DNA of 64,000 nucleotides from a bacterium. GTDB lineage: Bacteria; Bacillota_I; Bacilli_A; RFN20; CAG-826. Positions 2,169 through 25,514 of this stretch are shown here, piece by piece (the first letter of the stretch is position 1; each line of letters starts with the position of its first letter). A program made the translations under genes and the position numbers. Under the pieces are notes generated by a model that made no database searches, was not told the origin of the DNA, and was given only the letters and a program-made list of their open reading frames with translations. The stretch is from contig CAVIJK010000003.1 in NCBI GenBank assembly GCA_963643345.1, positions 484-64,483 of the forward strand, written 5' to 3'.

Positions 2169-5100
2169 ATGAACTCAACAACACAAACAAAACGCAGCAT
2201 CCAAGATGAGCTTAAAATATTCAAAATAATCTTACTATCAACCTTAGGGGCGTCGATCGTATTCACCGTCGCGCTAATCCTTGTGGCTGTTTTGACCAAA
2301 CTCATCGCTCTCGACATCGTCTTAGGCGTTTTGTCTGCTGCATGCATTGCCACAACCATGGTGTTCTTGATTCTATTCCTCAAGAAAACCAAGCAGAATG
2401 TGTTCGACCCATTATTTGACGTCACAACCAACAATTTGGAAAAAATCACAAAGAACGATTACGTTTTAGATAACTATGGCAATTCTAATTTCGCTGAATT
2501 CGATCAATTAAATGATACGGTCAAAAGAGTTAATGAAAGATACAACACCTTGATTGTCACATCAACCCTTAGCAATTTTGATGAAATCGGATTGACGAAG
2601 GATTCTGCATATGACAATAAGACCATCACATCTGAATCATTCTTCAACAATATCCCGTCATTGATTAATGTTGCGAAGGTTTTTAGAAACGCATTCGTCT
2701 CTTTTGTTTACGAGACAAAAGAAAATGATTTAACACACAATGATATGTCTAAATTGGTGGATATTATTGCTGATGTTTTTAGCGATAATAATCCGGTTAT
2801 CTGCGTCGATTCCGCAAACTCAATCATCTTATTCGTCCCAAATATCGATTCAATTTCCATCTTAAAAGAGAAACTCTCTTACGTTCAAAAGAAGTCCATC
2901 GTTGCTAGATTCTCCGATAGGAGCACTCAAGTTCTCCCATTGAAAGCCTCTGCTGCCATCTACCCATATTCATCAATGGATTCAGTAATCACCGATTTGC
3001 GTTATGCAGAACGTAGAGGCGAAGATATTAACATCTACCTTCCTGATAGAAGCAATGACGCCAACTCGCTCTCAACAGACGCTAAGCGCATCAATGATTC
3101 TGCCGAAGTAATGGAAAGACTTAATGCCGCGTTCACAAAGAAAGGCAACGTTGAAGCCTATAGAAAAGATATATTGGATTGTGCAACTGATTTATCCGAA
3201 TTCCTTGGGTTTGAGGGTATGTCGGTTATCGTCTATAACGAAGCTTCAGGCGACGCTGAGCAATTCTACTCTCACACGGTTGACCCAAATAGGTCATTTG
3301 GCGTTGGATATGATGCTAAAGAATTCTTGGCTGAACTTGCAAAATGCGCCGATAAAGATGGCTCCTTTGCCTTCTTTGATAGAAAGGACGTCACAACCCC
3401 AATAGGATCTTACTTAGATATTTATGGGGTTAAATCAGGTTATTTAGCGCTTATGTATAATAACGGTGCTATATATGGCGCCCTCTTGTTTGTCAATTTT
3501 GATAAGAAACTTGTCATTGACGCTCAGACTATGCAGGCAATCGTGGTCTTCACCAACATGTTCGCCTCATCCTTAAAGGAACTCTATAACAGAACTGCAA
3601 TCGAGGGCGCTAATTCTAGACTGGAGTCTTTGCTTCTTTATACAAATTATCAAACGTACACTGTTAACAAGAACAATTACACAATCGTTTCATCTTCGCG
3701 TTCAATCGCATCCATCAAAGAAGGCGAAGAGAACGTTAAATGTCATAAAGCCATCTACGGTTTAGACACACCATGCGAAGACTGCCCTCTTAGAACAAGC
3801 AAGAGAAAAAGAGTCGCGCTTGATAATAAGAACTATTCATATCACACCATCATCTCCAATAAAGAAAACAGGGATAACGCCACCTTCTTCCTCGAACCAA
3901 TCGATAGAAGAAACATCGCAAGAGAAAGATTTGATTCAGAGACAAAACTCGCCTCCTCTTATATGTTTGCTATCCGTTTGTGCGATAAGTGGAACTGCAA
4001 TCTCAAAGGCAACCTTGTCTTGATCAATATCGCCAACTACCATGATTTGATCTCTGCAGTTGGCGAACCGGAAATCAACCAATATTACAGAAACGTTGCA
4101 GACGCCTTATCTTCCCTTAAGTTAACTAGCGACGAAATCTTCCAGTACAATTCCTCGACTATTGCAATCATATTGAATGAATCAACGCGTAATGAGGTCT
4201 TTAGGGCCATTGAGATGATTGAAAAGGCCTACGAGACAAAGATTGGCAACTCAATCAAAGATTTCAAGGTTGAAAAATCGTACCGCGTATTCACATACCC
4301 ATTAACATTTGCGACGAGCTTTGATTTCATCCGTTCTATTGAGACTTATTTCAACTCCAATAACACAGATGGTGACAATAACCTCCATATCGTTGGAACA
4401 GATATCATCAGGCCTGCAAGCCGTGAAGACTATATCCTCTCGCTTCTTAACAAGGCTTTTGTCGACAAGAACTTTGATTTACGTATCCAGCCGATCGTTT
4501 CTAAAGAATCCGGCATCATCTCTGGCGGCGAAGCTCTATTGAGACTTAAGGATGAATTAACAAACACATTCTTTGACGCAGGAGAGTTCATCCCTGTTGC
4601 AGTTAAAGCTAACTCGATGAACAAATTCACAAACATCTTCATCGAGCAAATCGGACGTATTTATAAGATGTATGGCGCGACAGTCTTTAGAACCGGTTTC
4701 CTTGACAAGATCAACCTCAACGTTGACTCTTCCTACTTTAAGGATCCTCAGTTCCTTGATGATTTGGCTAAAGCTTTTATCGAATATAACTTCCAGAAGG
4801 GCTTCATCACATTCGAATTCAATGAGAGTGATATCGCCGACAACAAGGAGCTTATCAAAGAGTCAATGCACAAGATCAAAGAGCTCAACATCACAACTGT
4901 CTGTGACCAGTTTACCGGCAAATATATGACAATCGAGGCATTGTCGCGTCTTGGATTCTCCGAGGTTAAGATTGCCCGTAGCCTTGTTATGGAAATGGAC
5001 ACTAACCCAAATAGACTCAATGAAATCAAATCACTCTTGCAGCTTGCTAGAACATTCAACATTAAAACGACTTTGGTCGGTGTTGAAAGAAGAGAGCAGG

Positions 5101-5234
5101 TCAACCTCGTCATGGAAGAAGAGGGAATCACCAACTTCGAAGGCTGGTATTTCTTCAAACCTCTTGAAATCGACGAATTCTTGGCGTTGCTCCGTAACTC
5201 CAGCGGCAAGTCATTCCTTGGAAACAAGAAATAA
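2169..5234 (+). CDS. Multidomain membrane c-di-GMP signalling protein with degenerate C-terminal EAL domain (1021 aa)
   Basis: Two N-terminal TM segments and a long sensory/degenerate region with a Cys cluster (KCHKAIYGLDTPCEDCP). The C-terminal EAL fold has EALLR and EFNE. DDFGxGY is replaced by DQFTGKY, KxD by KIA, EGVE by VGVE, and QG by EG. Confidence 0.8.
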   Translation: MNSTTQTKRSIQDELKIFKIILLSTLGASIVFTVALILVAVLTKLIALDIVLGVLSAACIATTMVFLILFLKKTKQNVFDPLFDVTTNNLEKITKNDYVLDNYGNSNFAEFDQLNDTVKRVNERYNTLIVTSTLSNFDEIGLTKDSAYDNKTITSESFFNNIPSLINVAKVFRNAFVSFVYETKENDLTHNDMSKLVDIIADVFSDNNPVICVDSANSIILFVPNIDSISILKEKLSYVQKKSIVARFSDRSTQVLPLKASAAIYPYSSMDSVITDLRYAERRGEDINIYLPDRSNDANSLSTDAKRINDSAEVMERLNAAFTKKGNVEAYRKDILDCATDLSEFLGFEGMSVIVYNEASGDAEQFYSHTVDPNRSFGVGYDAKEFLAELAKCADKDGSFAFFDRKDVTTPIGSYLDIYGVKSGYLALMYNNGAIYGALLFVNFDKKLVIDAQTMQAIVVFTNMFASSLKELYNRTAIEGANSRLESLLLYTNYQTYTVNKNNYTIVSSSRSIASIKEGEENVKCHKAIYGLDTPCEDCPLRTSKRKRVALDNKNYSYHTIISNKENRDNATFFLEPIDRRNIARERFDSETKLASSYMFAIRLCDKWNCNLKGNLVLINIANYHDLISAVGEPEINQYYRNVADALSSLKLTSDEIFQYNSSTIAIILNESTRNEVFRAIEMIEKAYETKIGNSIKDFKVEKSYRVFTYPLTFATSFDFIRSIETYFNSNNTDGDNNLHIVGTDIIRPASREDYILSLLNKAFVDKNFDLRIQPIVSKESGIISGGEALLRLKDELTNTFFDAGEFIPVAVKANSMNKFTNIFIEQIGRIYKMYGATVFRTGFLDKINLNVDSSYFKDPQFLDDLAKAFIEYNFQKGFITFEFNESDIADNKELIKESMHKIKELNITTVCDQFTGKYMTIEALSRLGFSEVKIARSLVMEMDTNPNRLNEIKSLLQLARTFNIKTTLVGVERREQVNLVMEEEGITNFEGWYFFKPLEIDEFLALLRNSSGKSFLGNKK

Positions 5235-5272: not shown

Positions 5273-7699
5273 ATGGCAAAAGAAGGCGATTCCATCCTTA
5301 GATTGGACATCGATGTCAGAAGCAAAACCGTCATTAGATCAAGCGTTCGTGGTGACAACACCATGCCTTTTAAATCTTTCTTCCTCCGCTATATGTCCGC
5401 TGAACCGTTCACCTCATTAGATGAAAATTTCACCTTCGAAGTGATTGATTCGTATATTAGCGCTAAAGAAAACCAAGTGGCCATTTTCCCATACGATGAT
5501 AAGAATGGTGCATTGGTGTTTACATTTATCTGGATGAAAGAGAAACCGGATATGTTGTTCATCAACGTAACCGAGTTGAATTCAAAAGTTCTTGGTACAT
5601 CCCTCCATTCAATCGATTCGTTGACCGGCTTATATGCCCGTTCACATATGGTTTCATTGATCAGTTCCCATATCAAGAAACATAAGCCTTTCAACAAATG
5701 TGGTTTCGTCCTCATTGACATCAATAACTTCAAACACATTAATGATTCTTATGGACATCAGGTTGGTGACCAATGTCTAAGGGCGTTTGCCTCTAAATTG
5801 CGAGAAACCACCAAAAACGGCATTGTCGGAAGATATGGCGGAGACGAATTCATCATATTTGTCGATGATACTAATGAACAGGATTTGGCTGAACTTGCCA
5901 AGAGTATCCTCACAACCGATGTCGTTGTTAAAGTTGGTCACAAAAACGTCGCCATCACATGCTGCTGCGGTATCAGCATAATGAATTATTCTGCAGCGGA
6001 GTTCGGAATCCTTTTGCAGCAAGCGGATAAATCGTTGAAACTCGCTAAAGGAAACGACAAGAAGGAAGCCTATATGGATTCTAAGCTCGTCGCCAAAATC
6101 AACTCCAAGGTCGCCATTACCGCAGATGTCGAAAGAGAAAAATCACATAAACCTAAATTATTTAAGGATGAGATTAAAGGCCTTAAAATAAAGTATGGCC
6201 TAATTGGGTTGCTACTGAGTCTGCTATTTGTTGGGATTGCCGCTTTCCTCGTCTATATTTTCTTCATTCTTTATCCAAAAGAGATTCATCAGATATATCT
6301 CGAGAAGCCTTTGCTCCACGCTTTTATTCACGGTACGGTCGGCATAGTTTTGTTCTTTGCCTTTTTAAGCGTTTTCTTCTCAATAAAGATTTCTTCTTCA
6401 AAAATCAAGGCGACTCAGAACAAATACTTGGATTCGTGGACTGGAGGCATCAATATCGATAGATTTTTAATCGACGCCCCAAGAATGGTCAGGAACAGCA
6501 AGCAATACGCCTTAGTGCAGTTCAACATCATCGGCTATAAGACGATCCTTGATTATATCGGCAAAGAGAAATCAGATTTACTCATCATCGGCGTCTATAA
6601 CACGATCACGGGATGCCTAAATTCAAAAGAGGAACTTGCTGCAAGAAATTACGGAGATAGATTTGTCGCCATTATAAAAGGCGAGAACTATGATGAGATC
6701 GTTGAAAGGGTTAAAGATATCAAGACTAACGTTGAAACATATGTATCTTTAACGTATTCCATAACAATCAATGTCGTCATCGGCGTTTATTATCCAGAGA
6801 AAGAAATAGTGGATTTTGATTCCGCGATATCTCGCTCGGATTTAGCCTTATCTCATATTGATAGAGAATTCCTGATTCAGCCAATCATACGTTATCAGGA
6901 TGAGATGTTACTCAAAGAAGTTTCTGAAACTGACTTCTTCAATAAGGCTAAGCGTGCGATGTACGACGGAAATTTCGGCGTTGTTTACCAAGGCAAGAAG
7001 GATTTGATCAAAAATGTCTGGACTGGATGCGAAGCCCTTCTAAGATGGAACGATCCTTCAAGCGGCGAATTTAGCGATGCGGAAATCATACCTTTGCTTG
7101 AAAAGAATGGATTAATCATTGATCTGGATATACTCGTGTTTAAAACCGCGATTGAAGATATGGCTAAAGTCAAGAAGAATGGATTGAAGGTCGTACCGAT
7201 TTCCGTAAACGTATCCGCGAGGCATATGGCTAAATCCGATTGGCTTGATGATTACAAGAAGATTATCAAAGATAATGGGATTGATGCCGGATGTATAGAA
7301 TTCGAATTCACAGAAGCTGCATTTAGAGCCTCAGAGAAGTCCGTTTCCGACTCAATTGAACAAATACATAAAATGGGCGCGAAAGTGGCTCTAGACGACT
7401 TTGGGAAGGGCTACAGCTCACTTAATGTATTAAGAACTCTTAAGTTTGATACAGTCAAGCTCGATGGTTCCTATTTCATGGGTCAAAACGGCCTAGATGA
7501 TTCAACTAAGAAATTTATTAGGCATTTGGTTGATCTTTGTAAAGATCTAGGCAAGACGGTCGTATTTGAGAAGGTCGATTCTAGAGAGATAGCGGACGCA
7601 TTGAAGTTGTGTGGTATCACCAATGTCCAGGGGTTCTTCTACTGTAAACCTCAGCCAATCGATGAGATGACTAAATTGCTCAAGAACGCAAATAAATAA
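5273..7699 (+). CDS. GGDEF / TM / degenerate-GGDEF / EAL protein (808 aa), bifunctional-type c-di-GMP enzyme
   Basis: LIDINNFKHINDSYGHQVGD...GRYGGDEFIIFV is an intact GGDEF. Central TM hairpins are followed by a second GGDEF-like domain with YGDRF. The EAL domain has EALLR, SVNVS, EFTE, DDFGKGYSS, KLD, EKVD and QGFF. Confidence 0.88.
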   Translation: MAKEGDSILRLDIDVRSKTVIRSSVRGDNTMPFKSFFLRYMSAEPFTSLDENFTFEVIDSYISAKENQVAIFPYDDKNGALVFTFIWMKEKPDMLFINVTELNSKVLGTSLHSIDSLTGLYARSHMVSLISSHIKKHKPFNKCGFVLIDINNFKHINDSYGHQVGDQCLRAFASKLRETTKNGIVGRYGGDEFIIFVDDTNEQDLAELAKSILTTDVVVKVGHKNVAITCCCGISIMNYSAAEFGILLQQADKSLKLAKGNDKKEAYMDSKLVAKINSKVAITADVEREKSHKPKLFKDEIKGLKIKYGLIGLLLSLLFVGIAAFLVYIFFILYPKEIHQIYLEKPLLHAFIHGTVGIVLFFAFLSVFFSIKISSSKIKATQNKYLDSWTGGINIDRFLIDAPRMVRNSKQYALVQFNIIGYKTILDYIGKEKSDLLIIGVYNTITGCLNSKEELAARNYGDRFVAIIKGENYDEIVERVKDIKTNVETYVSLTYSITINVVIGVYYPEKEIVDFDSAISRSDLALSHIDREFLIQPIIRYQDEMLLKEVSETDFFNKAKRAMYDGNFGVVYQGKKDLIKNVWTGCEALLRWNDPSSGEFSDAEIIPLLEKNGLIIDLDILVFKTAIEDMAKVKKNGLKVVPISVNVSARHMAKSDWLDDYKKIIKDNGIDAGCIEFEFTEAAFRASEKSVSDSIEQIHKMGAKVALDDFGKGYSSLNVLRTLKFDTVKLDGSYFMGQNGLDDSTKKFIRHLVDLCKDLGKTVVFEKVDSREIADALKLCGITNVQGFFYCKPQPIDEMTKLLKNANK

Positions 7700-9802: not shown

Positions 9803-9848
9803 AAGGAGCCACGAGAATGTCCAATCTTATGGCTCCTTATTTATTTAG
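9803..9848 (+). terminator. Intrinsic terminator after the 8839 gene
   Basis: AAGGAGCC..GGCTCCTT stem followed by ATTTATTT. Confidence 0.55.
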
Positions 9849-9904
9849 CTAATCCAATTCCGGTTTTTATAACTTTCTTTAAATTAAAGCCTGTACAATA
9901 TAAA

Positions 9905-10185
9905 GCCTATCAATAGGGACTCGTGCCGCAGAGAAGGCGTCCGGCCATATATTTTTTATGGAAACAGAAGGAGTGTGCCATGAACATTAAAAATGGTCCG
10001 GCGTGATGCGGTTCCTTCCGCATGACCCGCAGAAAAGAATCGCCGTAGCTGGCCGAATCAAAGGTAACGGGGGAAAGCCTGGAATGCACGATGCACAATA
10101 TCGGCGGGGTCCGATGCCTGAAACTGCTCAAAGGGTCCGTTCAACTCATAACTTACGCCATTTAATGATGGCGTTTTTCTTTTTG
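9905..10185 (+). ncRNA. Unassigned GC-rich structured RNA / leader with its own intrinsic terminator
   Basis: About 280 nt that is GC-rich relative to its flanks. Hairpins include GCC-GCAGAGAA-GGC and ATGCGG-TTCCTT-CCGCAT (10005-10022). An 8-codon mini-ORF (9980-10006, MNIKNGPA*) sits 6 nt after AAGGAG. A strong terminator ACGCCAT..ATGGCGT plus TTTTTCTTTTT lies at 10155-10185. Both long ORFs here look spurious. Confidence 0.4.
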
Positions 10186-10247
10186 CCTTTAGCCACCAGA
10201 TGTAGTATCGTAATGTTTAGCAGCTGCTTATTTATATAATAAATATG

Positions 10248-10275
10248 TTGCATTCAATCCTGGATTTGATATAGT
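10248..10275 (+). promoter_or_regulatory. Candidate sigma-A promoter for riboswitch 2
   Basis: TTGCAT (10248-10253), 16-nt spacer, TATAGT (10270-10275). Confidence 0.45.
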
Positions 10276-10279
10276 AATG

Positions 10280-10352
10280 CCTGTAAAGAGCAAAACTAGA
10301 GGAATCTAGTGACGCAAAGCTAAAGGGTCTACCTTAGATAGCCAGCTGCCAG
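10280..10352 (+). promoter_or_regulatory. c-di-GMP-I (GEMM-I) riboswitch aptamer, copy 2
   Basis: GAGCAAAA, CTAGA-GGAA-TCTAG, GACGCAAAGC, GGGTCTA..TAGATAGCCAGCTGCC. Same architecture and near-identical core as copy 1. Confidence 0.8.
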
Positions 10353-10400
10353 ACGATCACCACGATAATAATAGGTGTTTGATAGGCGGCTATTTTTATT
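10344..10400 (+). terminator. Candidate expression-platform terminator of riboswitch 2
   Basis: AGCTGCC (10344-10350, the aptamer 3' side) can pair with GGCGGCT (10385-10391), followed by ATTTTTATT. An inner hairpin CACC..GGTG is present. Confidence 0.35.
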
Positions 10401-10504
10401 GGATGAGACAGTCATTGGACGGGAAAACTGATTCTGATCGCATTGCACAGCGAAAAGGATTGAGTATCCGTATATTTTGGTTTTAAGAACATTAAACATA
10501 ATTC

Positions 10505-11344
10505 ATGGTTGATTTAGAATACGTAAAAAAACGAAAAAAGAAAAAGATAGCCACTTATGCTAGTTCAATTGCAACTATTGGACTGCTTGCTTTGATCATC
10601 ATTTCATTCTTAGGAAAGAAGATTGGTAATTTCACTATTGAAATGCAAAGACGCGGTACTGAACTTGCATTATCGACTGACAAATCTTTTGAAAGCCATA
10701 CGACCTTTTTGTCTATTGACGACATTCCGACGCATTCAGGCTATTACTACGATGATATGTTAAATAGATTTACTGACGATACAATCGACTCGGTTGAATC
10801 TAATGACAAATTATATTATGAGACTGATCGCGATGGGACAAAGACTGGCACCTTCTTCTTTAAGTATACTTTTTATCTCAAAAATCTTGGAACTGACGAT
10901 GCATTTTATTCCTCGTCGTTTGTAATTAAAGATATCGTTAGAGATGAGAATTTTAACTATGATTTATCCGACATTTTAAGAGTTCGCGTTTATAACAATG
11001 ATGCAGATTCAGACGAACACACAAATACAATCTACGCCAAACAAAACATCAGCTATACCCACATCGATGAAAACGGACAGGAATCGTATGATTCTCCTGT
11101 TTGCATTGATAGAGATACAGGTGAGGTTATTGGCGGCTATGCAACTTCATTTAAAAGTGATTCTATTGTGTGCGAAGATGAAAAGACCCCTATTAAAACG
11201 GGCGAATGCAGACGTATAACTTTAGTCATGTGGCTAGAACTTTCTGATGAGCAAGCCGTTGGCGATATGCCAAAAAATACAAGTATGAAGTTGGTGTATA
11301 ACCTAGAGGGCGCTCAATCATTCCAAAATCAAGATGAGGATTAA
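10505..11344 (+). CDS. Membrane-anchored TasA-like paralog (279 aa) lacking the AWF/AWY signal motif; candidate fibre anchor/nucleator
   Basis: K-rich N-terminus plus one TM (IATYASSIATIGLLALIIISFLG). The C-terminal motif RRITLVMWLELSDEQ...MKLVYNL is shared with the three neighbouring TasA-like proteins. The RBS is weak. Confidence 0.7.
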   Translation: MVDLEYVKKRKKKKIATYASSIATIGLLALIIISFLGKKIGNFTIEMQRRGTELALSTDKSFESHTTFLSIDDIPTHSGYYYDDMLNRFTDDTIDSVESNDKLYYETDRDGTKTGTFFFKYTFYLKNLGTDDAFYSSSFVIKDIVRDENFNYDLSDILRVRVYNNDADSDEHTNTIYAKQNISYTHIDENGQESYDSPVCIDRDTGEVIGGYATSFKSDSIVCEDEKTPIKTGECRRITLVMWLELSDEQAVGDMPKNTSMKLVYNLEGAQSFQNQDED

Positions 11345-11346
11345 TT

Positions 11347-12423
11347 GTGAAGAAAATTAACTTATTTCTCCCAACTTTAATTGCTACCGTTGCCTCGCTT
11401 TCTATAGCAAGTATCGGTGCTACCTACGCTTGGTATCAGTATCAAACTTTTGTTTCCATCAACCTCGGCGGAACATCAATTGATACAACCAAGTTATTTG
11501 AAATTGGTTTGGTTAGTGATGTGCAGCTTGATGTCGATAAGTATGGATTATCATATGAGAAAATTGGCGACAAGAATATCTATTGGGTTAATAGCGCCTC
11601 AACTGCCGGTGTTACGAATTATTATCTCGAAAGAAATGGTTATGGCACTGATCAATTAGAGGGAGTTACAAGCGGTAAATACACTACTGGTTCTTTGACT
11701 TCTGATGGAAAAGATGCTTTCTTCCTAAAAAAAGCACCTAACTCATTAGATAATTATTACCACCCTAATCCTGGTTATTACGACTACGCATCAAAACAAA
11801 ACTATCTACATTTTGATTTTGCGTTCCGATTAACAGAAAAATCTCCTGAAGGTTCTTCAATTGTTGAAAATATCGGTGTTAGACTTTCTAATTTCGATTT
11901 CGAATCTTCGGAAGGAGAGTTGGCTAATGCTGTTAGACTTCACTTCTGTGATGAGGATAACCCAGAGTCTTCATTTATCTACAATCCAAGCAGTGTTGAC
12001 GATGGACAAACAACAGTCGGCGGTGTCCTTGATTTAATCAATTCCGGCAACTACGACACCATTTATAGAAATGGCAGTCTTTATGAATATGCCTATGGCG
12101 AATACGAGACTCTTGTTTATAACGACGAAAAAACTACCGATGGTTCTGATGTCGATATATTTGACGCTGGCAATGGTAACAGTTTTGTTGCTAACCACTT
12201 AAATAATGCTTATGCGGTTAATCAAGAAGAGACTGTTTGGTCAACGTGCGATTACCTTGGTGCTAAGACGGTTATCTCTAAAGAAAGAAGAATCGCTTCT
12301 AGCGGTGCTGATGGTATTGCGTATTTTTCCATGGACATTTACCTTGAAGGGTGGTCGGAAGTATTCATCAATAAGGAAATGGATCACTACTTCAAATGCA
12401 ATATAGGGTTTGAAAGTATATGA
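11347..12423 (+). CDS. TasA/camelysin-like protein with SipW-type signal peptide (358 aa)
   Basis: GTG start 7 nt after GAGGA. N-terminus ...VASLSIASIGATYAWYQYQT. C-terminal motif YFSMDIYLEGWSE...FKCNIGF. Confidence 0.78.
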   Translation: MKKINLFLPTLIATVASLSIASIGATYAWYQYQTFVSINLGGTSIDTTKLFEIGLVSDVQLDVDKYGLSYEKIGDKNIYWVNSASTAGVTNYYLERNGYGTDQLEGVTSGKYTTGSLTSDGKDAFFLKKAPNSLDNYYHPNPGYYDYASKQNYLHFDFAFRLTEKSPEGSSIVENIGVRLSNFDFESSEGELANAVRLHFCDEDNPESSFIYNPSSVDDGQTTVGGVLDLINSGNYDTIYRNGSLYEYAYGEYETLVYNDEKTTDGSDVDIFDAGNGNSFVANHLNNAYAVNQEETVWSTCDYLGAKTVISKERRIASSGADGIAYFSMDIYLEGWSEVFINKEMDHYFKCNIGFESI

Positions 12424-13574
12424 ACTACAAGAAGATTATACCTATTGCCTTAGTTGCCATTTCTTGCTCATTACTTGCTTCTGTCGGCATGTCTGTAGCT
12501 TGGTATAGTAATGGTTCATATTTGCGTCTTTCTAACGTTGAAGTCTCATTGATGTCTGAGCCTGAATTAGGTTTAGGCCTGACATATAGTGACAATAAAA
12601 ACGATTACCATTTTGGTGAGTTTCCTTACGATGAACTCCCTAAGATGAAAAGTGGTTATTCGGATGTCTACGAAGAAGGACAAGAGTCTGATATCAACGG
12701 ATTTGTTCCGGTTTCGGCGATGTTTTCTAAGGAATGGATTGGCAAAAACGATGAAAACGGTTTAATTGATCCAATTTTCTATCAAAATTACAAACACGGA
12801 TTAATCATTGACACCAAGACATACCAAAAGACTTCTGCAGCAATCTCTGGATTCTATTCCGTACCGATGTATCTTTATTGCGATAGAGATATGTACGTCT
12901 CGATTGATAGTAAAACAACGGGATTTGCGGTTGACGAAAAGAAAAACCTTGAGACGGCCAAAGAGCTTCATGAAAAAGATGATAAGTACTCGGTTGATGA
13001 ATACGTTAAAGCCTTAGCGGGCGTTGTCAACTCTTTAAGATTCTCGATTTACGATTGCGAAACCTATAAATATTGGATAATTGACCCCTATAAAGGTGAT
13101 ACAACTACATATTATGGTGGCACTCTGGATTTAGATGGCAGCGGATCGTTCGATACATACTACGATTCCGACAATAAGATTTTCAAAGAATTCTTATTTG
13201 GAGAGTATCAAGACCCAGAGAATATTGTATATACGGATGAACCAATAGAAGATACGACAACCACATTTAACGCTTTCTCAGCTAACCATGTACAAGGTGC
13301 CCAAACTGTTGATATGGATTACTACTTATCCAACAACCTTATCGCTAAAGAAGAAAGCTATACACCGGAAGAACTATCAAAAGGAGATATGATTGCGATG
13401 AAAAATCATGTCCCACATAGAATTGTCTTATCTATTTACATCGAAGGATGGGATAGAGATAATACATCTGTATCGGCAATGGGATCGTTCTTCTCTTCGA
13501 TTAAGTTTAAACTTACAAGACAAAATTTTGATGCATCTGAGAATGATATTGCGAGCAGTTCTCAGAATGAATAA
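12420..13574 (+). CDS. TasA/camelysin-like protein with SipW-type signal peptide (384 aa)
   Basis: ATGA overlap with the upstream gene. N-terminus ...SLLASVGMSVAWYSNGS. C-terminal motif RIVLSIYIEGWDRDN...SIKFKL. Confidence 0.78.
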   Translation: MNYKKIIPIALVAISCSLLASVGMSVAWYSNGSYLRLSNVEVSLMSEPELGLGLTYSDNKNDYHFGEFPYDELPKMKSGYSDVYEEGQESDINGFVPVSAMFSKEWIGKNDENGLIDPIFYQNYKHGLIIDTKTYQKTSAAISGFYSVPMYLYCDRDMYVSIDSKTTGFAVDEKKNLETAKELHEKDDKYSVDEYVKALAGVVNSLRFSIYDCETYKYWIIDPYKGDTTTYYGGTLDLDGSGSFDTYYDSDNKIFKEFLFGEYQDPENIVYTDEPIEDTTTTFNAFSANHVQGAQTVDMDYYLSNNLIAKEESYTPEELSKGDMIAMKNHVPHRIVLSIYIEGWDRDNTSVSAMGSFFSSIKFKLTRQNFDASENDIASSSQNE

Positions 13575-13585
13575 AGGAGAAACCT

Positions 13586-15109
13586 ATGAGTGATTACTTT
13601 ACATACTTGTCAGAAGTAGTGGAAGCTTTCTGGAAAAACTTCTGCACCTTCATGTATGACACATTTGTCACACCTTGGTCAAAGGTTGGTGGCAATTTCC
13701 AACACTACCACACAATCTTCTACACTTACTATCAGAGTTTCGGATTTTGGGGTTGGTTTTTCTTCATTTTATTCGCACTTTTGTTACTCGCAGCAGTAGG
13801 CGGTTTGGTATTTCTTATTGTTATAGGCCTTAGAAAATATGTTAAGTTCTACAGGAAAGAACTTGATAAAGATGCTCTTAGAGAACAGGTAGATAGACTC
13901 AATTATGAACTCTATCAAGCCGTTGCAGAGAAAGATAGAATTCTTGGACTGCAAGTTAATGCGCTTGGCTTAAAGAACCCAGAATTAGATAAGAAGAATG
14001 CTCAGGATGTCGTTGATGAAGTTTCATCAAGATTCCCTAAACTTACATGGGTTGACCATCAATATGCGGATTTCGACGCAACAATTCCTGATATCCCAGA
14101 TTTCACATTGGAGGAATTGTGCAATAGATTTAGATTATTCGCGGCCTCTCAGTTACATCTTTATTATACAGTAGATACAATTAGACAACTGTTTGCAGGT
14201 ATGGCTACCTCCAAATTGATGATTCTTGAAGGTATTTCCGGTACAGGTAAAACTTCCATGGCGTATGCTTTGGGTAAATTCTTCCAATACGACGCGAATA
14301 TCTGCTCGGTTCAGCCTTCTTGGAAAGATAGATCAGAACTTATCGGTTACTACAACGAATTCACCAAGAAATTCAATGAAACCGAATTCTTACGTGCTTT
14401 ATATACAGCAACATACCGTAAAGATATCAACATCATCGTCCTCGATGAAATGAACTTGGCACGTATCGAATACTACTTCGCAGAATTCTTATCCGTCATG
14501 GAAATGCCTAACATCAATGAATGGAACATTGAATTAATCAACACCTATTCAAATGATGATCCTAAGAACGTCCATAACGGCAAAATGTTAATCCCTCAGA
14601 ATGTTCAGTTCTTCGGTACCGCTAACAACGATGACTCCACATTCACAATCTCAGATAAGGTCTATGACCGTGCTATATCCTTATTCTTTGATAATAAAGG
14701 TATTGCCTTTGATGCTGAATTCACTGATCCAGTCAAATTATCATATGATCAATTCCATCAATTATGCATTAATGCATGGAATGACTATCCAATATCTGAT
14801 GCAATTTTAGATAAATTCGGTGAGCTTGATAACTTTGTTATCGCTAAATTCAAACTTGCGTTTGGTAACCGTATTTTGAAACAGATGAAATCATTTGTTC
14901 CAGCCTATGTTGCGTGCGGTGGCACTGAAATCGACGCAGTCGACTTCATCTTCACCAACAAGATTCTCAAGAAGTTCGAGTCATTGAATGTCGCATTCTT
15001 GAGAGACGAATTGGGCGAACTCAACCTTAAACTTGATGAATTATTTGGTGAAGGTACATTCAAGATGGCCCACAAATACATCAATAACTTGCTGAAGATG
15101 TCAGCTTAA
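13586..15109 (+). CDS. Membrane-anchored McrB-like AAA+ (AAA_5 / COG1401-type) NTPase (507 aa)
   Basis: One TM (FWGWFFFILFALLLLAAVGGLVFLIVIGL) followed by a coiled coil. Walker A is GISGTGKTS and Walker B is IIVLDEMNLARIEYYFAEFLSVME. FFGTANNDDSTFTISDKVYDRA matches the McrB-family pattern GT.N.D..T...S.KV.DRA. A strong RBS (AAAGGAG) precedes the start. Confidence 0.82.
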   Translation: MSDYFTYLSEVVEAFWKNFCTFMYDTFVTPWSKVGGNFQHYHTIFYTYYQSFGFWGWFFFILFALLLLAAVGGLVFLIVIGLRKYVKFYRKELDKDALREQVDRLNYELYQAVAEKDRILGLQVNALGLKNPELDKKNAQDVVDEVSSRFPKLTWVDHQYADFDATIPDIPDFTLEELCNRFRLFAASQLHLYYTVDTIRQLFAGMATSKLMILEGISGTGKTSMAYALGKFFQYDANICSVQPSWKDRSELIGYYNEFTKKFNETEFLRALYTATYRKDINIIVLDEMNLARIEYYFAEFLSVMEMPNINEWNIELINTYSNDDPKNVHNGKMLIPQNVQFFGTANNDDSTFTISDKVYDRAISLFFDNKGIAFDAEFTDPVKLSYDQFHQLCINAWNDYPISDAILDKFGELDNFVIAKFKLAFGNRILKQMKSFVPAYVACGGTEIDAVDFIFTNKILKKFESLNVAFLRDELGELNLKLDELFGEGTFKMAHKYINNLLKMSA

Positions 15110-15128
15110 TTAATCTACAAATCGTTTT

Positions 15129-18100
15129 ATGCAAAAAAAGAAGAAAATCGAAAACTTAAACAATTCGACCGCTACCAGAAATGGGGCGGATTCTTCTCTT
15201 TCGGGCGCGCACACAGGCACAGGCAAGGGAACTAAGAAATCCAAAGTCAGCAGAAAAGAATTAGAGAAGCTCTCAAGAAAACCAAAAACCGCCAAAGAGG
15301 AGAAAGTGTCGCTTTCAGAAGAAGGCTTCCTTGAAATCGCCAAGGAACTAAAACCTCAGAAAGAGGATATTTTCGATGCAGGCAAAATTGAATTTGGAGA
15401 GGATAAAGTCTTAAAAGAAGAAGCTGATGAATCACCAGTTGATACTCCAATCGATGAGAATGCTTCAGATATCGCTAGATTGGCTGAATTGGCTCTTCAA
15501 GATGAGAAGAGAGTTGAAGAACAAGAAGCGGAAGCCGAGAAAGAACGTATCGAAAAAGAAGAACAGGCCAAGGTACTTAAAGAAGAACAAGAAAGATTGG
15601 CAGAGGAACAGGAAGAAATCGATAGAGAAGCCGCAGACGACACTCCTAAATCGGATAGAGTTCCTCCAAAAGAAGTTCCATCCCCTGAGACAATCACAAA
15701 GAAAGACGAAGATTTATTTGACTACGATTCAAAGAATAAGATCCTTGAAAATGTCATCAAATCCGCAGTCTTAGAAGATGAGGATTTAGATCGTTTATCA
15801 AAACTCCTTGGCAATGGAAATTCTGTCCATACTCTAAGATTATCTCGCCATGAGACCGGATCATTCGATATGGCGTGGGTTAAAGCGGTAGAAGACGCAA
15901 TCCCTGCCATCGATGAAATTCTCAAGAATCCTAGAATCAACACTAAAGTGGTTACAGATATCGTTCCGGTTGAACTCGCAAAGAAGACTGGATCGGAATC
16001 AGTTAAACACTTAGCGTCCCACACTCAGTATGTTAAAGACATCGATGAGAATGGTAACGTTATCCCGTCGAAGATCCTTAATATCGGTTCCGATGACGAA
16101 TATATCACATATGAAAATAGATTCGTCGCAACGGTAATTAGACGCCTAGTCCTCTTTATCGAAAAGAGATATGACTTCATCGTCAAATATTCCGAATTAA
16201 AAGATTATGACATCCTCTATATCAAGAACCATTCCGATGTTAACGGATTGGCAGTGGATGTTGAATCTAAAGTGGTGGTATCACGCCCATCCGGCAAAGG
16301 TGCTGCTGACGGAGAGGATAACGCTTCCTTGATGAAGCGTATCAACCTCATGAGAAGGTACGCTAAATTCTTCTATTCATCTGATTTCATGAAGAGATTC
16401 AAGAATGAGAAGAATGTTCGTGCTCCAATCATGCAGACTAACATCATTAGGAAAAACCCTAAATACCATAAGGTTTATAACCTCTATCGTTTCATGGAGA
16501 TGTATAGAGCCTTAGGCGTAGAATTCACGGTAAAAGAAGACTACTACCTCCCAGAACAAGCGGATTTAGATACAATCAACAATTTGACAGTGGCTAACTT
16601 TCTTGCCGCTAGAGCAAAACCATCAGAAAAAGACAAAGTCAGTAAAGTAGAGGTTAAGAATCCTGAGGTTTTAACAACCGTCGATGATGATATCTTCACA
16701 TTCTTCCCGACTGGAGAATATCCTGAGTACGTTAGAGTGGACGAAGAGTATCTCAGATGGAAAGAAAGAAACACCAAGGACCTTAAAGAAGACCCGAATG
16801 AGCTTGAAAAAGCCTATAGAGGCAATGACTATCTTAGAAAAGCAAAGGCAGAGAAGGAACGCGCTAGACGCGAAGCCCTTAAGGCAAGACGTGAGAAAGA
16901 ACGTCAGGAATTCCTAGAAGAGCAAGAGAGACTCAAAGCCGAGAAAGAGGCCGAGAGAATCCGCCAAGAGAAACTCGCCAAGGAAAGAGAAGAAGCCAAG
17001 GCTCTCGTTGAGCTTGAGGCCGCTAGAGAAGCCGTTAGACAGGCCGCTAGAGAAGAAGACGAGGACTTATTGCTTGCAATAGTCACACCAGTTGAAATTA
17101 CAATCACAGGCGATACCGAAATCGTTGCTAAGACAACATATGCGCAGCTCGAATCAACGGTAGAATTCTATATTGCTGATCCATCACTTGTTTGGTCATC
17201 ATCCAATGAGGAAATCGCAACCGTTGACCAAACCGGATATGTTTCCGGTTGGAAGGAGGGCGATGTTGTCATTAGGGCAACATCGGTTGAGGACCCATCA
17301 TGCTATACGGATTACGAGATGCATGTTTATCCAAGGCCTCCGATCACTGTCAGTTTCCCAACAATCGACAAGATTCTTGTTACTAAAGAGGCAACGCTTA
17401 CCCCAGTTGTTAGAAACGCAGATGATTTATCGGTCATCTGGCATTCTTCCAATGAGGCAGTTGCTACGGTTATAGACGGTGTAGTCCATGCTTATTCTGC
17501 AGGCAATGTCGTCATCACCGCTTTCTCGTCCGAGGATCCAACAAAATCACACTCAATCTGCATCCACCCATTAGATGGCATTGAATTAAGTGGAGAATCT
17601 CATTCAATAGTTTCAAGAAGAACAACTCTTCAGTTGAACGCATTCTCTAATGTTTCAGCAGACGACATGATTCTGTTCTTCTCGAGCGACGAAAATATCG
17701 CAACGGTTGATCAGAATGGACACGTTGAAGGCGTCTCATGGGACGGAGGAGAAGTCGAAATCAAAGTCATCTCCACAGTTGACCCAACAATTTCAAATAC
17801 ATATAAGGTTACAGTCTTGCCTAAACCTATCGTCAGTGTTACGCTCGAAGGCGATTCAAGAGTGTTCCTCTCTAGACCAAATCAATTGATTGGCACAGTC
17901 ATCAACGCGATGGTCAATGATGTCACATGGACATCGTCTGACGAAAGCGTTGCTACAGTTGTAGACGGGGTTGTTACCGGCGTTTCAATCGGCAGTGCAA
18001 CCATCACTTGCAGGTCAAATGAAGAGACCGATAAGTTCGCAACACTCGATATCGAGGTTAAAGAAGCAATCATCATTGCAGAGCATAAAGATTCCCTCAT

Positions 18101-21100
18101 CGCTGATTTAACAATGAAGTTAGAGGCCATCTCTAATGTCAGCGACGATGACACAATCATTTGGGTATCATCTGATGAATCTGTTGCAACGGTTGATAAT
18201 AACGGCATAGTTACTGGCGTTAAAGAAGGAGACGCAACAATCAGCGCTTCATCTTCTAAAGAACCAGAATTGTTCCAAGAATTCACTTTACATATCACTC
18301 CAGCAATCGCAGTCACGTTAAGCGGTTCAAATGTTGCCCTCACAACGAAGACCATTGCTACTTCAGTTGAGGTTTTGAATGCTGAAGATTATTCAGTTAC
18401 ATATAAATCATCCGACGAAAATATCGCTACAGTTGATGAAAACGGCGTTGTCACAACGCTATCAGCTGGCGTTGTAATGATTAGCGCAACCAGCGTTCAG
18501 GACCCTACAAAGAACAGCGAAATCGAAATTACTATCAGAGATGGTATCGAACTTTCGACACCAGTTGTTGCTATTCGCGCCGGAAAGACAACGGTTTGGA
18601 GTGCAATCTCAAATGTTGCTGAAGATGACGTAATCGTTTGGTCAACAGACGATGAATCTATTGCAACAGTTGATAGTAACGGCACAATCACTGGCGTCAG
18701 CGATGGCAAGGCTACAATTTATGCAACCTCCTCAACTGACGACACGCTTTATGCAACCGGCGTTATTGAAATTAGATCCGATATCGCAATCGAAATCGAT
18801 GGACCAGCTAAAATCATCAAGTCTAGAACGGCTAAGTATGAGGCAATTTTGTTAAATGCCGATAATTCTGCGGTTATTTGGTCAACATCTGATGACGGCA
18901 TCATCACAATCGATGAAAATGGCGTTGCTACCGCACTTCAAGTAGGCGATGCCGATATAATGGTACAAAGCGCTGAAGATAGCGAGAAGACATCTTCAAT
19001 CCGTATCAGCGTCAAGGAAGGCGTTGAATTGAATTATGTAGAAACATCGCTTATTTCTAACAAGACGACATTGACGCTAAATGCAATCACAAACGTCTCT
19101 GATGATGACACAATCGTCTGGACTTCATCTAACGACAGTATTGCAACTGTTGATAATGGTGTCGTCACCGGAATCGATAAACTTGGTGGAGATGTGGTTA
19201 TTAGAGCGTCTTCATCTAACGATCCAGAACTATATAAAGAAGTCAATATCCATGTAGAACCTATGCCAATTGTTGGCATTAATATCATCGGTTCTAATAG
19301 AGCAATCCCTGGCAAGGCAATTCAGTTGGCGGCAGAGGTTGAACGTGCAGATGATCCAAGCGTCGTCTGGACAACATCCGATGAGAACATCGCAACGGTT
19401 GACGAGAATGGCTTAGTCACTCCGATCGCTGTAGGCAAAGTTCTGATCTCGGCTACATCGGTTGAACAGAACGATAAATGCGCAACATTTGAAGTCAATG
19501 TCTATGAAGGCATTGTCTTTGATACATATAAGGAATCACTTGTCGTTGGCAAACCTGAGCAATTCGGAGCCATGTCTAATGTTTCAGAGGATGATGTAGT
19601 TGCCTATTCATCATCCGATGAGAATATCGCAACGGTTGACGAGAAAGGCGTTGTAACCGGAATTAATGCTGGAACTGTTACGATTACTGCTTCCTCCAAA
19701 ACCGATTCAACATTCTTTGTTGATCGCGAAATAAGCGTTAAACCTGACGTTTCTATCGAAATTGTTGGTCAAAATAATTATGTCATTGGACAGAAAGTTC
19801 AGCTTACTGCCAATGTCTTGCACGCAATAGACACAAGCGCTACTTGGTCATCAAGTAACGAATTCGTCGCTAAAGTCGATTCCGAAGGATTGCTTACGGT
19901 TCTTGCGGCAGGCACAACCGTTATTTCAGCTAGATCCGTAGAGGATATGAGAAAACTCGCCACGCTTGAAATCACCGTCATTGATGGAATCGCGTTCCTT
20001 GATGATTGTGATGAAGTGTTCATCGGCAAGAGCGTCGAACTCTCCGCTAAGAGTAACCTCGAGAATGACTCAATCATTTGGTCGTCATCGGATGAGGCAA
20101 TCGCCACAATCGATGAGAACGGACTTCTAACCGGAACAGGACTTGGTGAGGTCACCATTAAGGCAACCTCAACCACAGATGAGAATGTTTATAGTGAACG
20201 CAAGATAGATGTTGTGCCAAGAGCTCCAATCGAAGTTGAAGTTTATGGTACAGATAGACTTTTCGTCGGCAAAGATTCGCAATTCAGCGTATATGTCACT
20301 AACGCAGATGACCCTTCGGTCACTTGGGGCTCGTCTAGTGAGGATGTTGCAACAGTATCCTCGGATGGACTTGTACACGGCGTATCCGCAGGAGATGTCA
20401 CGATTCTTGTCACATCAATTGAGGATCCAACAAAGTCGGCATCCCTTACTTTAACAATATCCGACGGTCTCACGCTCGAAGCTGATGAGATTGAGGTCAT
20501 TGCAAAGGATGATGTTGTTTGGAGCGCAATATCAAGTGTTGCTCCAGATGACACAGTCACTTGGACATCAAGCGATGAAACAATCGCAACGGTTAGAGAA
20601 GGCATGATTACCGGTGTAACTGAGGGCGTTACAACAATAACAGCAACATCCAACACCGACCCTGCTATCTCTATTTCTAAAGAAATCACGGTCCTTCCTA
20701 GACCTGCAACAATTCTTACAATCGGTGAACTTTCTTCAGTGGTCATGGATGGCAATGCAACGATTCCATTTACCATTGAAAACGCTAAAGATAAAACCGT
20801 CAGATGGACGTCCTCTGATGAATCCGTAATACGTGTTGATGATGCCGGAACATTAACCGGCGTTGCCATTGGAAGCGCTGAAATCACTGTCACATCAGTC
20901 GAGGATCCTACAAAATCAGCAACTACAAGTGTGGCATGTATTGAAAAGGTCATTGTCACGTCTGAGGAAGATACCTTTAGAGTTAAGGAAACCATCGCAC
21001 TCACGGGCGTCTCTAATTTAGGAGATGAAGATACGCTTGTTTGGACAACTTCTGATGTCAATATCGCTACAGTTTCTCCAAATGGAGAGGTGTTAGGCAT

Positions 21101-21872: not shown

Positions 21873-21893
21873 TATTTAATAAGAGGATTAATA

Positions 21894-22667
21894 ATGGCAG
21901 AAGAAAAAGAAGCGAAAAAACCTCTATGGAGGAGAATAACCGATTGGGTCATGACGGGAATCGTTGTGGTTTTAGTCGGCTTCTTTGCTGCCTTTATGAT
22001 CAATGGACAGGTAACTAAGAATAAGAATTACGGAGTTAACATGTTCCTGGGAACCGCAACACTCGTAGTTCAGACTGATTCCATGGAACCTTTATATCCT
22101 GTAGGTTCCGCCATATTCGTCAAGGATACTGAGCCATCTGATATCAAAATAGACGATGATGTCACATTCTATTATCAGTCTTGGGGATTGGTGGTAACTC
22201 ATCGAGTCTCTAATATTGAATATAGACAGGATGAAGGAAAATATTACTTCACGGTTCATGGCATCAACACCGATTCTGAACAGTGCGCAGGAACAAATGG
22301 CGGTCAAAGAGACTGCACAGATCAAACCCAAACGTTTTCAGAGGATTACCTCATCGGAAGGGTTTCAGGGAAATCCGTGGCCTTTGGCAAGATTTATAAG
22401 TTCTTCACGACGATTTGGGGTTTGATAATTCTTCTAGCCATCCCAGCCACTTATTTAATCACCACTAGCGTAATCGATATTGTCAAAGCCGTGAAAAGCG
22501 ATGAAGATGACATGACATCTAAACCATCGGGTGAAGCTAGCGGGATGGAAGGGCTGAGTCCTGAAGACATCGCAAGATTAAAAGAGGAGATGCTCAACGA
22601 AATGATTGAGCAAAAACAGCAAGAGCTCTTGAATAAAGAGGGAAAGGAAGTCAAGAAAGATGAATAA
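21894..22667 (+). CDS. sipW: SipW-type (archaeal/ER-like, S26B) signal peptidase I with C-terminal TM and acidic tail (257 aa)
   Basis: N-terminal TM, catalytic Ser in VVQTDSMEP and His in VVTHRV, as in B. subtilis SipW (SGSMEP / THR). A second TM and an E/K-rich tail follow. Confidence 0.82.
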   Translation: MAEEKEAKKPLWRRITDWVMTGIVVVLVGFFAAFMINGQVTKNKNYGVNMFLGTATLVVQTDSMEPLYPVGSAIFVKDTEPSDIKIDDDVTFYYQSWGLVVTHRVSNIEYRQDEGKYYFTVHGINTDSEQCAGTNGGQRDCTDQTQTFSEDYLIGRVSGKSVAFGKIYKFFTTIWGLIILLAIPATYLITTSVIDIVKAVKSDEDDMTSKPSGEASGMEGLSPEDIARLKEEMLNEMIEQKQQELLNKEGKEVKKDE

Positions 22668-24195: not shown

Positions 24196-24196
24196 T

Positions 24197-24934: not shown

Positions 24935-24935
24935 A

Positions 24936-25480: not shown

Positions 25481-25514
25481 GCCACCGATTTATTAACGGT
25501 GGCGTTTTTCTTTT
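25481..25514 (+). terminator. Intrinsic terminator ending the 10.5-25.5 kb gene string
   Basis: GCCACCG..CGGTGGC stem followed by GTTTTTCTTTT. Confidence 0.75.

Follow-up and report, generated by a model that had tools for sequence, protein, structure and literature searches.

The window analysed here is a stretch of 64,000 nucleotides (nt) from contig CAVIJK010000003.1 of a bacterial genome assembly (GCA_963643345.1), and the element in question is a riboswitch of the cyclic di-GMP (c-di-GMP) class I family, also known as GEMM-I, which lies on the forward strand ahead of a long gene string. A cmscan search of the whole window against Rfam 15 matched RF01051 (c-di-GMP-I) at 10279-10353 (+) over the full length of the model (positions 1-87), with 59.8 bits against a gathering score of 35 and an E-value of 3.6e-9 for the whole window. 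Two matches in the window exceed the gathering score, the other being copy 1 at 2012-2087 (61.1 bits). An earlier, sequence-only reading of this DNA had named the element a second GEMM-I aptamer and proposed a scan with RF01051 as a check; the scan bears it out, and by its covariance model 10279-10353 is a genuine class I c-di-GMP riboswitch aptamer, for which binding of c-di-GMP is predicted. Downstream follow nine co-oriented open reading frames (ORFs, 10505-25469) that overlap or are separated by at most 21 nt, and a hairpin plus U-run at about 25481-25514 closes the string, so that the riboswitch indeed heads an operon of about 15 kb.

The core motifs by which the aptamer had been recognised can all be read from the sequence, namely GCAAAA (10290-95), CTAGA (10296-300), GGAA (10301-04), TCTAG (10305-09), TGACGCAAAGC (10310-20), GGGTCTA (10325-31) and AGCCAG (10340-45). 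According to the RF01051 alignment, in which I checked the identity of the pairs, the first hairpin consists of GC 10290-91 paired with GC 10314-15 and of ACUAGA 10295-300 paired with UCUAGU 10305-10, capped by the GNRA loop GGAA (10301-04), and the conserved GACGCAAAG forms the junction between the two aptamer hairpins. The second hairpin, P3 (10318-10347), pairs AGCU 10318-21 with AGCU 10344-47 at its base, and GG 10325-26 with CC 10342-43 and GUC 10327-29 with GAU 10337-39 higher up. One consensus pair position of RF01051 lacks a partner here, owing to a deletion. A P1 helix closing the aptamer was rejected, as its only candidate pairs, G10288-C10350 and three weak ones (10282-84 with 10353-55), lack conservation.

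The aptamer overlaps a putatively riboswitch-controlled intrinsic terminator, T1 (10344-10400, +), which was identified by folding and is conserved in 22 distinct homologous leaders. Its base stem pairs AGCUGCC (10344-50) with GGCGGCU (10385-91) in 7 pairs (5 G-C, 1 A-U and 1 U.G), directly followed by the U-tract AUUUUUAUU at 10392-400 (ATTTTTATT in DNA letters); this is exactly the alternative pairing that the sequence-only reading had put forward. The base is continued by a 3x3 internal loop, 3 base pairs (CGA 10354-56 with UUG 10379-81), a 1x1 mismatch, 4 base pairs (CACC 10358-61 with GGUG 10374-77) and a 12-nt loop. I also considered a K-turn in the internal loop, which the sequence does not fit. 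By itself the hairpin folds with -18.2 kcal/mol, and the unconstrained minimum-energy fold of 10270-10410 contains the T1 stem (-38.7 kcal/mol, z = -2.97, with none of 200 shuffled sequences as stable).

Four of the seven nucleotides of the T1 5' arm (AGCU 10344-47) are at the same time the 3' strand at the base of P3, and the remaining three (GCC 10348-50) include C10349, which aligns with the ligand-pairing C92 of Vc2. The free fold of 10282-10400 (-34.9 kcal/mol) consists of T1 and a register-shifted, P3-like hairpin (GCUA 10319-22 with UAGC 10339-42). Forcing the Rfam aptamer on the same segment gives -26.2 kcal/mol and reduces the T1 base stem to GCC/GGC, three pairs that end 4 nt away from the U-tract. 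Because the 3' strand of P3 is the 5' arm of T1, and because the forced aptamer leaves only three pairs of the base stem, aptamer and T1 are mutually exclusive. I saw no separate antiterminator element between aptamer and T1, and an ON design requires none; with this exclusivity and no antiterminator, an aptamer stabilised by its ligand should give read-through.

Homologous leaders were collected in several ways, and the resulting loci are denoted by L numbers. A DNA pattern of the aptamer core retrieved 38 loci, mostly from Acholeplasmataceae, Anaeroplasma and metagenome-assembled genomes (MAGs) of other 'Bacilli', plus Clostridioides difficile. Exact-protein look-ups of gene-2 homologues added four more loci with a GEMM-I riboswitch directly upstream of gene 1, these four being all in which the upstream sequence was long enough and the gene order agreed, and two further DNA-pattern scans added contigs from the rumen and the human gut. 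A genome-contig search for related loci seeded with the gene 1 protein found nothing. Altogether 22 distinct leaders lie upstream of gene-1 homologues, from Erysipelotrichales-like and Acholeplasmatales genomes, and include 'MVDLxYV' types (gut and rumen Bacilli) and 'MRLSTVLG' types (Acholeplasmatales). In several Acholeplasmatales loci the riboswitch lies about 4 kb upstream of the gene 4 homologue, as found with tblastn.

A hairpin plus U-run overlaps the 3' end of the aptamer in all 22 leaders, and in 21 of these the 5' arm of T1 begins within the 3' strand of P3, usually forming 10-11 pairs; the exception is the first of two aptamers in L102, in which the 5' arm begins at the CC right after P3. 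The competition between terminator and aptamer folding that the sequence-only reading had postulated is therefore found in the window, through the shared nucleotides 10344-47, and the overlap recurs in every leader upstream of a gene-1 homologue. Covariation was computed on a collapsed alignment of 13 distinct T1 arm pairs, where 96.5% of the cells are standard pairs, against 7-47% in slid registers. Double-sided changes occur at two pairs (G-C to A-U and C-G to U-A), and none of 500 shuffles reached the observed values of pairing and covariation.

The closest genome is that of a Faecalibacillus sp. (L024 and L034), whose copy-1 enzyme shares 92% amino-acid identity with that of the window (tblastn with the window proteins). 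The leader in the window (10176-10504) is 94.8% identical to L034 3370-3900 (-), the aptamer 98.7%, and aptamer plus T1 98-99%. Identity falls to 65.5% over the first 116 nt of gene 1, and genes 1-3 show 54-59% protein identity vs 81-85% DNA identity for the flanking genes. The nearest database relatives of gene 2 are all 51-55% identical. This suggests, as far as sequence comparison can tell, a cassette-like or diversifying variation of exposed surface proteins behind a fixed regulatory region.

Some loci carry more than one aptamer. In an Acholeplasmatales MAG (L037, 6853-7168, +) three tandem GEMM-I aptamers, each with an overlapping terminator, precede the gene-1 homologue, and other arrays are a triple one in L013 (2117-2539, -) and a double one in L005 (5045-5264, +). 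The 3' ends of Acholeplasmatales aptamers read AGCCAGUUGUCA where others end in ..GCC (L003, L004, L007, L009, L017, L026, L035 and L037). The position aligned with C92 may thus be a U in these aptamers, the alignment being uncertain there.

The predicted promoter (10248-10275, +), read from the sequence, consists of a -35 element TTGCAT (10248-53), a 16-nt spacer and an extended -10 element TGaTATAGT (10267-75), and transcription probably starts near 10282, judging from its position. Compared with L034, the -35 element, the TG and the -10 element are unchanged and all three substitutions fall in the spacer; L039 and L041 share the layout TTGCAT-16 nt-TGaTAT(A/T)(G/A)T. A consensus promoter scanner made no call at 10248-10275, because the -35 element matches the consensus at only 3 of 6 positions.

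Probably the element acts as a transcriptional ON switch of the c-di-GMP-I class, kinetic and terminator-based, with c-di-GMP as its driving signal. The ON behaviour I infer from the architecture and from the precedent of Bc2, a GEMM-I riboswitch upstream of cap in Bacillus thuringiensis BMB171 (PMC4933901). From the extended -10 promoter the transcript would begin near 10282, and the aptamer (to 10350) would be complete about 35 nt before the 3' arm of T1 (10385-91) is made. With no ligand present, GGCGGCU would pair with the free GCC at 10348-50 and then displace the P3 base AGCU (10344-47), completing a long, interrupted hairpin beside AUUUUUAUU, and the polymerase would stop at about 10395-10400. 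With ligand bound, P3 would be locked and C10349 paired with the ligand, so that at most three stem pairs could form, 4 nt from the U-tract, and the polymerase would continue into the nine genes at 10505-25469. An EAL phosphodiesterase encoded among them could then lower the signal, as a negative feedback.

Several points weigh against this proposal. No convincing P1 could be defined, and only about 7 nt precede position 20 (Vc2 numbering) if transcription starts near 10282. The base stem of T1 is the shortest in the family, with 7 pairs vs 10-11 elsewhere, and carries a 12-nt apical loop; a simple terminator scanner made no call at T1, because the apical part is long. Nearest-neighbour energies put the aptamer state 8.7 kcal/mol above the free fold, and switching would therefore require kinetic control or tertiary contacts, which such energies leave out of account. 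Kinetic control and tertiary contacts are usual for this riboswitch class. Part of the comparative set was gathered with DNA patterns that fix most of the stem, which inflates its apparent conservation; the purine/pyrimidine (R/Y) covariation is left uninflated by this bias, and the free R/Y positions never gave an A.C clash. Two further points, the base at 10289 and a second hairpin between T1 and gene 1, each give rise to a rival explanation.

The base at 10289 (+), which the earlier reading had overlooked, is an A at the equivalent of G20 in Vc2, the contact to the first ligand base. It occupies Rfam model position 11 with top posterior probability, this being the unpaired base that precedes the first GC pair, where copy 1 has a G (2022). 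A10316 corresponds to the intercalating A47 and C10349 to C92, the mapping of 10289, 10316 and 10349 to Vc2 numbering being partly inference; the spacing of 27 nt between A10289 and A10316 equals that between A11 and A38 in Bc2. An A at this position is the defining change of the GEMM-Ib riboswitches of Geobacter, which are selective for 3',3'-cyclic GMP-AMP (cGAMP), and the change A20G shifts their selectivity to c-di-GMP (PMC6456294). The A in the window therefore counts against c-di-GMP as the ligand, and it is conserved in most orthologues of the Erysipelotrichales type (L034, L039, L041, L045, L047, L053, L060, L081, L083, L085 and L101). Moreover, the reverse change G20A renders Vc2 bispecific, with 53 nM for c-di-GMP and 120 nM for cGAMP (PMC6140456).

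A sensor of the GEMM-Ib type, with cGAMP alone or together with c-di-GMP as its physiological ligand and the ON architecture retained, is nevertheless unlikely. Orthologous riboswitches before the same operon have a G at this position in the L078 group and in all Acholeplasmatales. The only intact GGDEF domain in the window, in a neighbouring 808-amino-acid (aa) protein, is canonical (NDSYGHQVGD...GGDEF; GD, not GS) and lacks the serine of the Hypr enzymes, and three EAL proteins are encoded in the window, one of them within the operon; no cGAMP synthase was seen in these 64 kb. Two A-type aptamers from Firmicutes respond to or prefer c-di-GMP: in Bc2, A11 takes the role of G20 in Vc2, with a c-di-GMP response in vitro and in vivo (PMC4933901), and the natural clostridial A20 aptamer Cbe 1-2 has values of 30 nM for c-di-GMP and 463 nM for cGAMP (PMC6140456). 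On the basis of the G20 orthologues, the canonical GGDEF, the EAL genes and the behaviour of Bc2 and Cbe 1-2, c-di-GMP is the likely ligand, and A20 likely lowers the affinity for it somewhat compared with a G20 aptamer.

Gene 1 starts at 10505, 105 nt past the U-tract of T1, and this part of the leader contains a second hairpin, H2 (10419-10471, 53 nt), found by folding and followed by the U-rich AUAUUUUGGUUUU, the whole spanning 10419-10484 (+). Standing between T1 and gene 1, H2 and its U-rich run could mask read-through at T1 by terminating transcription themselves, either constitutively or under separate regulation, as in Bc1 of B. thuringiensis, in which a second terminator masks the c-di-GMP response (PMC11218506). 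In favour of this, H2 differs from L034 by one compensatory change (G10440A with C10451U) and two wobble-preserving changes, and it is kept in L039, L044 and L040. However, the form with hairpin plus U-run is restricted to the subgroup of the window: six other leaders (L060, L082, L085, L095, L101 and L102) have a small hairpin without U-run or almost no structure there, and Acholeplasmatales leaders pass from T1 to a strong ribosome-binding site within about 45 nt. In addition, 2 nt separate the H2 stem from its U-run, which is broken by a GG, and a permanently silent operon would not be retained. I regard such masking as quite unlikely. H2 may be a second, weaker, lineage-specific terminator, like T2 of Bc1, or a stabilising structure, to judge from its fold; as a general second terminator of the family it was rejected, as most lineages do not have the U-run.

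The sequence-only reading had described this segment as a leader of about 100 nt with a weak ribosome-binding site before the first gene. The length is right, at 105 nt, but a Shine-Dalgarno-like sequence is absent. Within the operon, genes 1 and 5 lack one (10480-10504 and 15104-15128) and the other genes have one; most orthologous leaders have none before gene 1 either, except the L045 and L078 types. Shortly after T1 lies UUGGACGGG (10415-10423, +), the local form of a 'UUGGGAC(A)' box that is conserved in leaders of the Erysipelotrichales type and reads UUGGAC at 10415-20 in the window. The box is found 12-25 nt past the U-run of T1 in every leader of this type (L039, L041, L045, L047, L053, L060, L078, L082, L083, L085, L095, L101 and L102), it lies outside all search patterns used to collect the leaders, and the segment around it is otherwise variable in length and sequence. 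Neither a consistent pairing partner nor a known motif was found for it across the leaders. I considered the GGGAC core as a promoter, a sigma-54 site, a mimic of a Shine-Dalgarno sequence or a partner of an aptamer strand, and none of these fits all sequences.

That the hairpin at 10344-10391 is no regulated terminator at all, the element acting on translation or mRNA stability or the aptamer being a relic, can be regarded as very improbable: the base stem of only 7 pairs with its large apical part, and a gene 1 whose initiation must be unusual without a Shine-Dalgarno sequence, would fit, but 150 nt lie between the aptamer and the start codon, which no part of the aptamer can reach, hairpin and U-run are conserved with covariation in every orthologous leader, and aptamer plus T1 are far closer to L034 (98-99%) than the adjoining gene 1 (65%).

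The probable ON switch can be compared with several riboswitches described before, of which Bc2 is the closest functional analogue and is experimentally validated. Bc2 gives read-through on c-di-GMP in vitro and in vivo and controls a large surface adhesin (PMC4933901), and it resembles the element in the window in the A at the equivalent of G20, the intrinsic terminator in the expression platform and the Bacillota host. In contrast, Bc2 has a 76-nt leader before the aptamer, whereas the promoter in the window abuts it; the Bc2 terminator adjoins a single gene, whereas about 105 nt of conserved leader past T1 and a nine-gene operon of a different kind follow here; and the sequence relationship is limited to the family core. 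The Geobacter GEMM-Ib riboswitches, such as the one upstream of pgcA, likewise have A20 and a terminator-based ON switch and control extracellular or surface functions, sometimes in tandem (PMC6456294). Unlike the element in the window, with its canonical GGDEF nearby and its G20 orthologues, they are strongly selective for cGAMP and occur with a Hypr-GGDEF synthase, and by this comparison functional membership of the aptamer in GEMM-Ib is not supported.

Among the tandem and dual designs, Bc1 has a long platform with a second terminator-like hairpin, comparable to H2 (PMC11218506), and the triple tandem Bc3-5 of B. thuringiensis (PMC4759541) is comparable to the triple GEMM-I array before the orthologous operon in L037. 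The window differs from both in that it has a single aptamer, and its H2 is lineage-specific and only a putative terminator. In the literature searched I found no paper on riboswitches of Acholeplasma or Faecalibacillus. The Cd1 riboswitch of the flagellar operon of C. difficile, also of the c-di-GMP-I class, has an OFF design. It belongs to the same aptamer family and has a nearly identical first hairpin, and two C. difficile loci (L012 and L036) were in fact retrieved by the core sequence of the window; in these, however, the tail of the aptamer (CCAAAAAG) is able to form an antiterminator with the terminator region, which is an OFF layout. The logic in the window is the opposite, because the 3' strand of the aptamer is itself an arm of the terminator.

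All nine genes of the operon lie on the forward strand. Gene 1 (10505-11344, 279 aa) encodes a protein with an N-terminal basic stretch and one membrane segment and directly follows the riboswitch in all related loci. Genes 2 and 3 (11347-13574, 358 and 384 aa) each encode an N-terminal hydrophobic segment followed by a beta-rich domain of unknown fold. In translation these segments end in ..GATYA|WY and ..MSVA|WY, which resembles a SipW-type signal, although a hidden Markov model (HMM) search with the SipW-cognate signal model gave no match to the N-termini. Genes 1-3 have no Pfam or NCBIfam match, and the 36 homologues found for gene 2 are all unnamed. The AlphaFold model of gene 2 is confident (predicted local distance difference test, pLDDT, 86; predicted template modelling score, pTM, 0.81), yet a Foldseek comparison with PDB gave no fold match (best E 0.15, TM about 0.14), and gene 2 as a TasA-like fibre protein was therefore rejected.

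Gene 4 (13586-15109, 507 aa) encodes one or more membrane segments (50-86), a short coiled coil and an McrB-like AAA+ (AAA_5) NTPase domain (Pfam AAA_5, 25.2 bits). Its best solved relatives are structures of Escherichia coli McrB (E 1.5e-5), with which the Walker A, Walker B and N..D motifs align. The protein also matches PADLOC PDC-M26A, a 'phage defence candidate', at 4.9e-40, so that a family catalogued as a defence candidate is found here within an envelope operon under predicted c-di-GMP control.

Gene 5 (15129-21872) encodes a giant protein of 2247 aa with a charged, coiled-coil N-terminus, a DUF2357 domain at about 255-351, a second coiled coil and 17 Big_2 repeats (450.8 bits over 17 stretches); hydropathy shows neither a signal peptide nor a membrane segment. 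DUF2357 (PF09823, the N-terminal domain of McrC) is matched on residues 201-520 with 25.2 bits (cut-off 23.3) and also in 11 of 25 homologues of gene 5. The homologues of the N-terminal part of gene 5 mostly measure only 450-555 aa. Foldseek did not recover an McrC-like fold for this domain (model pLDDT 76, pTM 0.59, best E 0.12), and the candidate assignment to DUF2357/McrC comes from the Pfam match only.

Gene 6 (21894-22667, 257 aa) encodes a signal peptidase I of the archaeal/SipW type (TIGR02228, 54.7 bits against a cut-off of 51.85; the SipW model itself gives 51.8 bits, below its cut-off of 190). Gene 7 (22660-24195, 511 aa) encodes a membrane-anchored EAL protein (Pfam EAL, 229 bits) with EALVR and DDFGSH motifs, which is probably an active c-di-GMP phosphodiesterase. 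Genes 8 and 9 (24197-25469, 245 and 190 aa) abut or overlap the preceding genes and encode a protein resembling methylthioadenosine/S-adenosylhomocysteine (MTA/SAH) nucleosidases (PNP_UDP_1) and a NUDIX hydrolase. Both follow the EAL gene, are coupled to the operon's end by translation, and might either deal with the products of nucleotide breakdown or be passengers with no related role.

The sequence-only reading had spoken of fibre and machinery genes, which is a fair guess at the theme but does not describe a known fibre system. A SipW-like peptidase, three signal-anchored proteins and a giant immunoglobulin (Ig)-repeat protein are present. The SipW-type signal peptidase is shared with the TasA/SipW-type biofilm fibre operons, but no subunit of the TasA/camelysin family was found in genes 1-3 by Pfam, NCBIfam or the fold of gene 2, and the similarity to TasA-type substrates is limited to the '..A|WY' signal-like ending of genes 2 and 3 as read from the sequence. 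The machinery, in turn, consists of an McrB-like AAA+ protein and a DUF2357 protein, which is not a known fibre-assembly system.

A better match are the systems named CoCoPALM, which are derived from McrBC and linked to pilus assembly, and which Bell et al. 2024 introduced in two sentences, deferring their analysis (PMC11090510). Gene 4 has the McrB-like AAA+ domain of their GTPase; gene 5, by its sequence, is an McrC homologue (DUF2357) with coiled coils beside the GTPase; and gene 6 corresponds to the associated gene of the signal peptidase family, a SipW-like gene following the pair in L001 too. At the place of the NxD signature of CoCoPALM, gene 4 reads ANNDDS, an ambiguous motif that fits NxD and NxxD alike. 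For the FtsB-like region, gene 4 has the membrane segment at 50-86 followed by a heptad-like stretch, with no match to DivIC/FtsB HMMs at E 10. Gene 5 departs from the published description by its 17 Big_2 repeats and by the lack of any detected nuclease domain. With three of the four described features found, the operon appears 'CoCoPALM'-like. That paper mentions neither a riboswitch nor c-di-GMP for CoCoPALM (PMC11090510). In the literature searched I found neither later work on CoCoPALM nor a link between GEMM-I and operons of this type.

The riboswitch leader is preceded by an intrinsic terminator (10155-10174) that closes any unit further upstream. Between this terminator and a terminator-like hairpin at 9803-9840 lies a G+C-rich stretch of about 250 nt (9900-10150) that is absent from L034. 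As a structured RNA the region 9900-10190 was rejected (z = -1.1, no Rfam match above noise, no convincing ORF, absent from L034), and the stretch may be a gene remnant or an insertion. Copy 1, further upstream, heads two GGDEF-EAL genes (2169-5234 and 5273-7699) and has a different and longer platform (2012-2168). In this platform a hairpin CUGGUG..CACCAG comes first, followed by a terminator-like GCGGCAU 2119-25 / AUGCCGC 2135-41 with UUUU, and an alternative hairpin GCCGC..GCGGC adjoins a GGAGG ribosome-binding site.

The riboswitch itself adds little to what is known, as its class, its A20 variant and its terminator-based ON design have all been described before. Its value is rather that of a pointer to function, as it connects c-di-GMP, a sessility signal, with a set of genes that is uncharacterised and apparently widespread. 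Judging from the compared loci, the link between GEMM-I and CoCoPALM-type operons appears to be conserved and to span Erysipelotrichales and Acholeplasmatales, including the triple tandem arrays in L037. I therefore propose, tentatively and as a possibility that I would not yet call probable, that GEMM-I riboswitches, single or in arrays of up to three, serve both in Erysipelotrichales and in Acholeplasmatales, which lack a cell wall, as dedicated and conserved regulators of CoCoPALM-type operons, and that the encoded pairs are parts of a surface apparatus.

If this is true, pairs of an McrBC-derived NTPase and a DUF2357 protein would be parts of a surface or adhesion apparatus induced by c-di-GMP and not restriction systems, and the Ig-like protein with 17 repeats and no signal peptide might be handled by a membrane-anchored AAA+ ring. 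Riboswitch versions with A20 and with G20 would then set different thresholds or admit cGAMP as a second input. Raising c-di-GMP or deleting T1 would offer a simple handle to turn the system on in a common genus of the human gut, and the link provides a testable hypothesis for a branch of the McrBC family outside restriction, across two orders that include bacteria without a cell wall.

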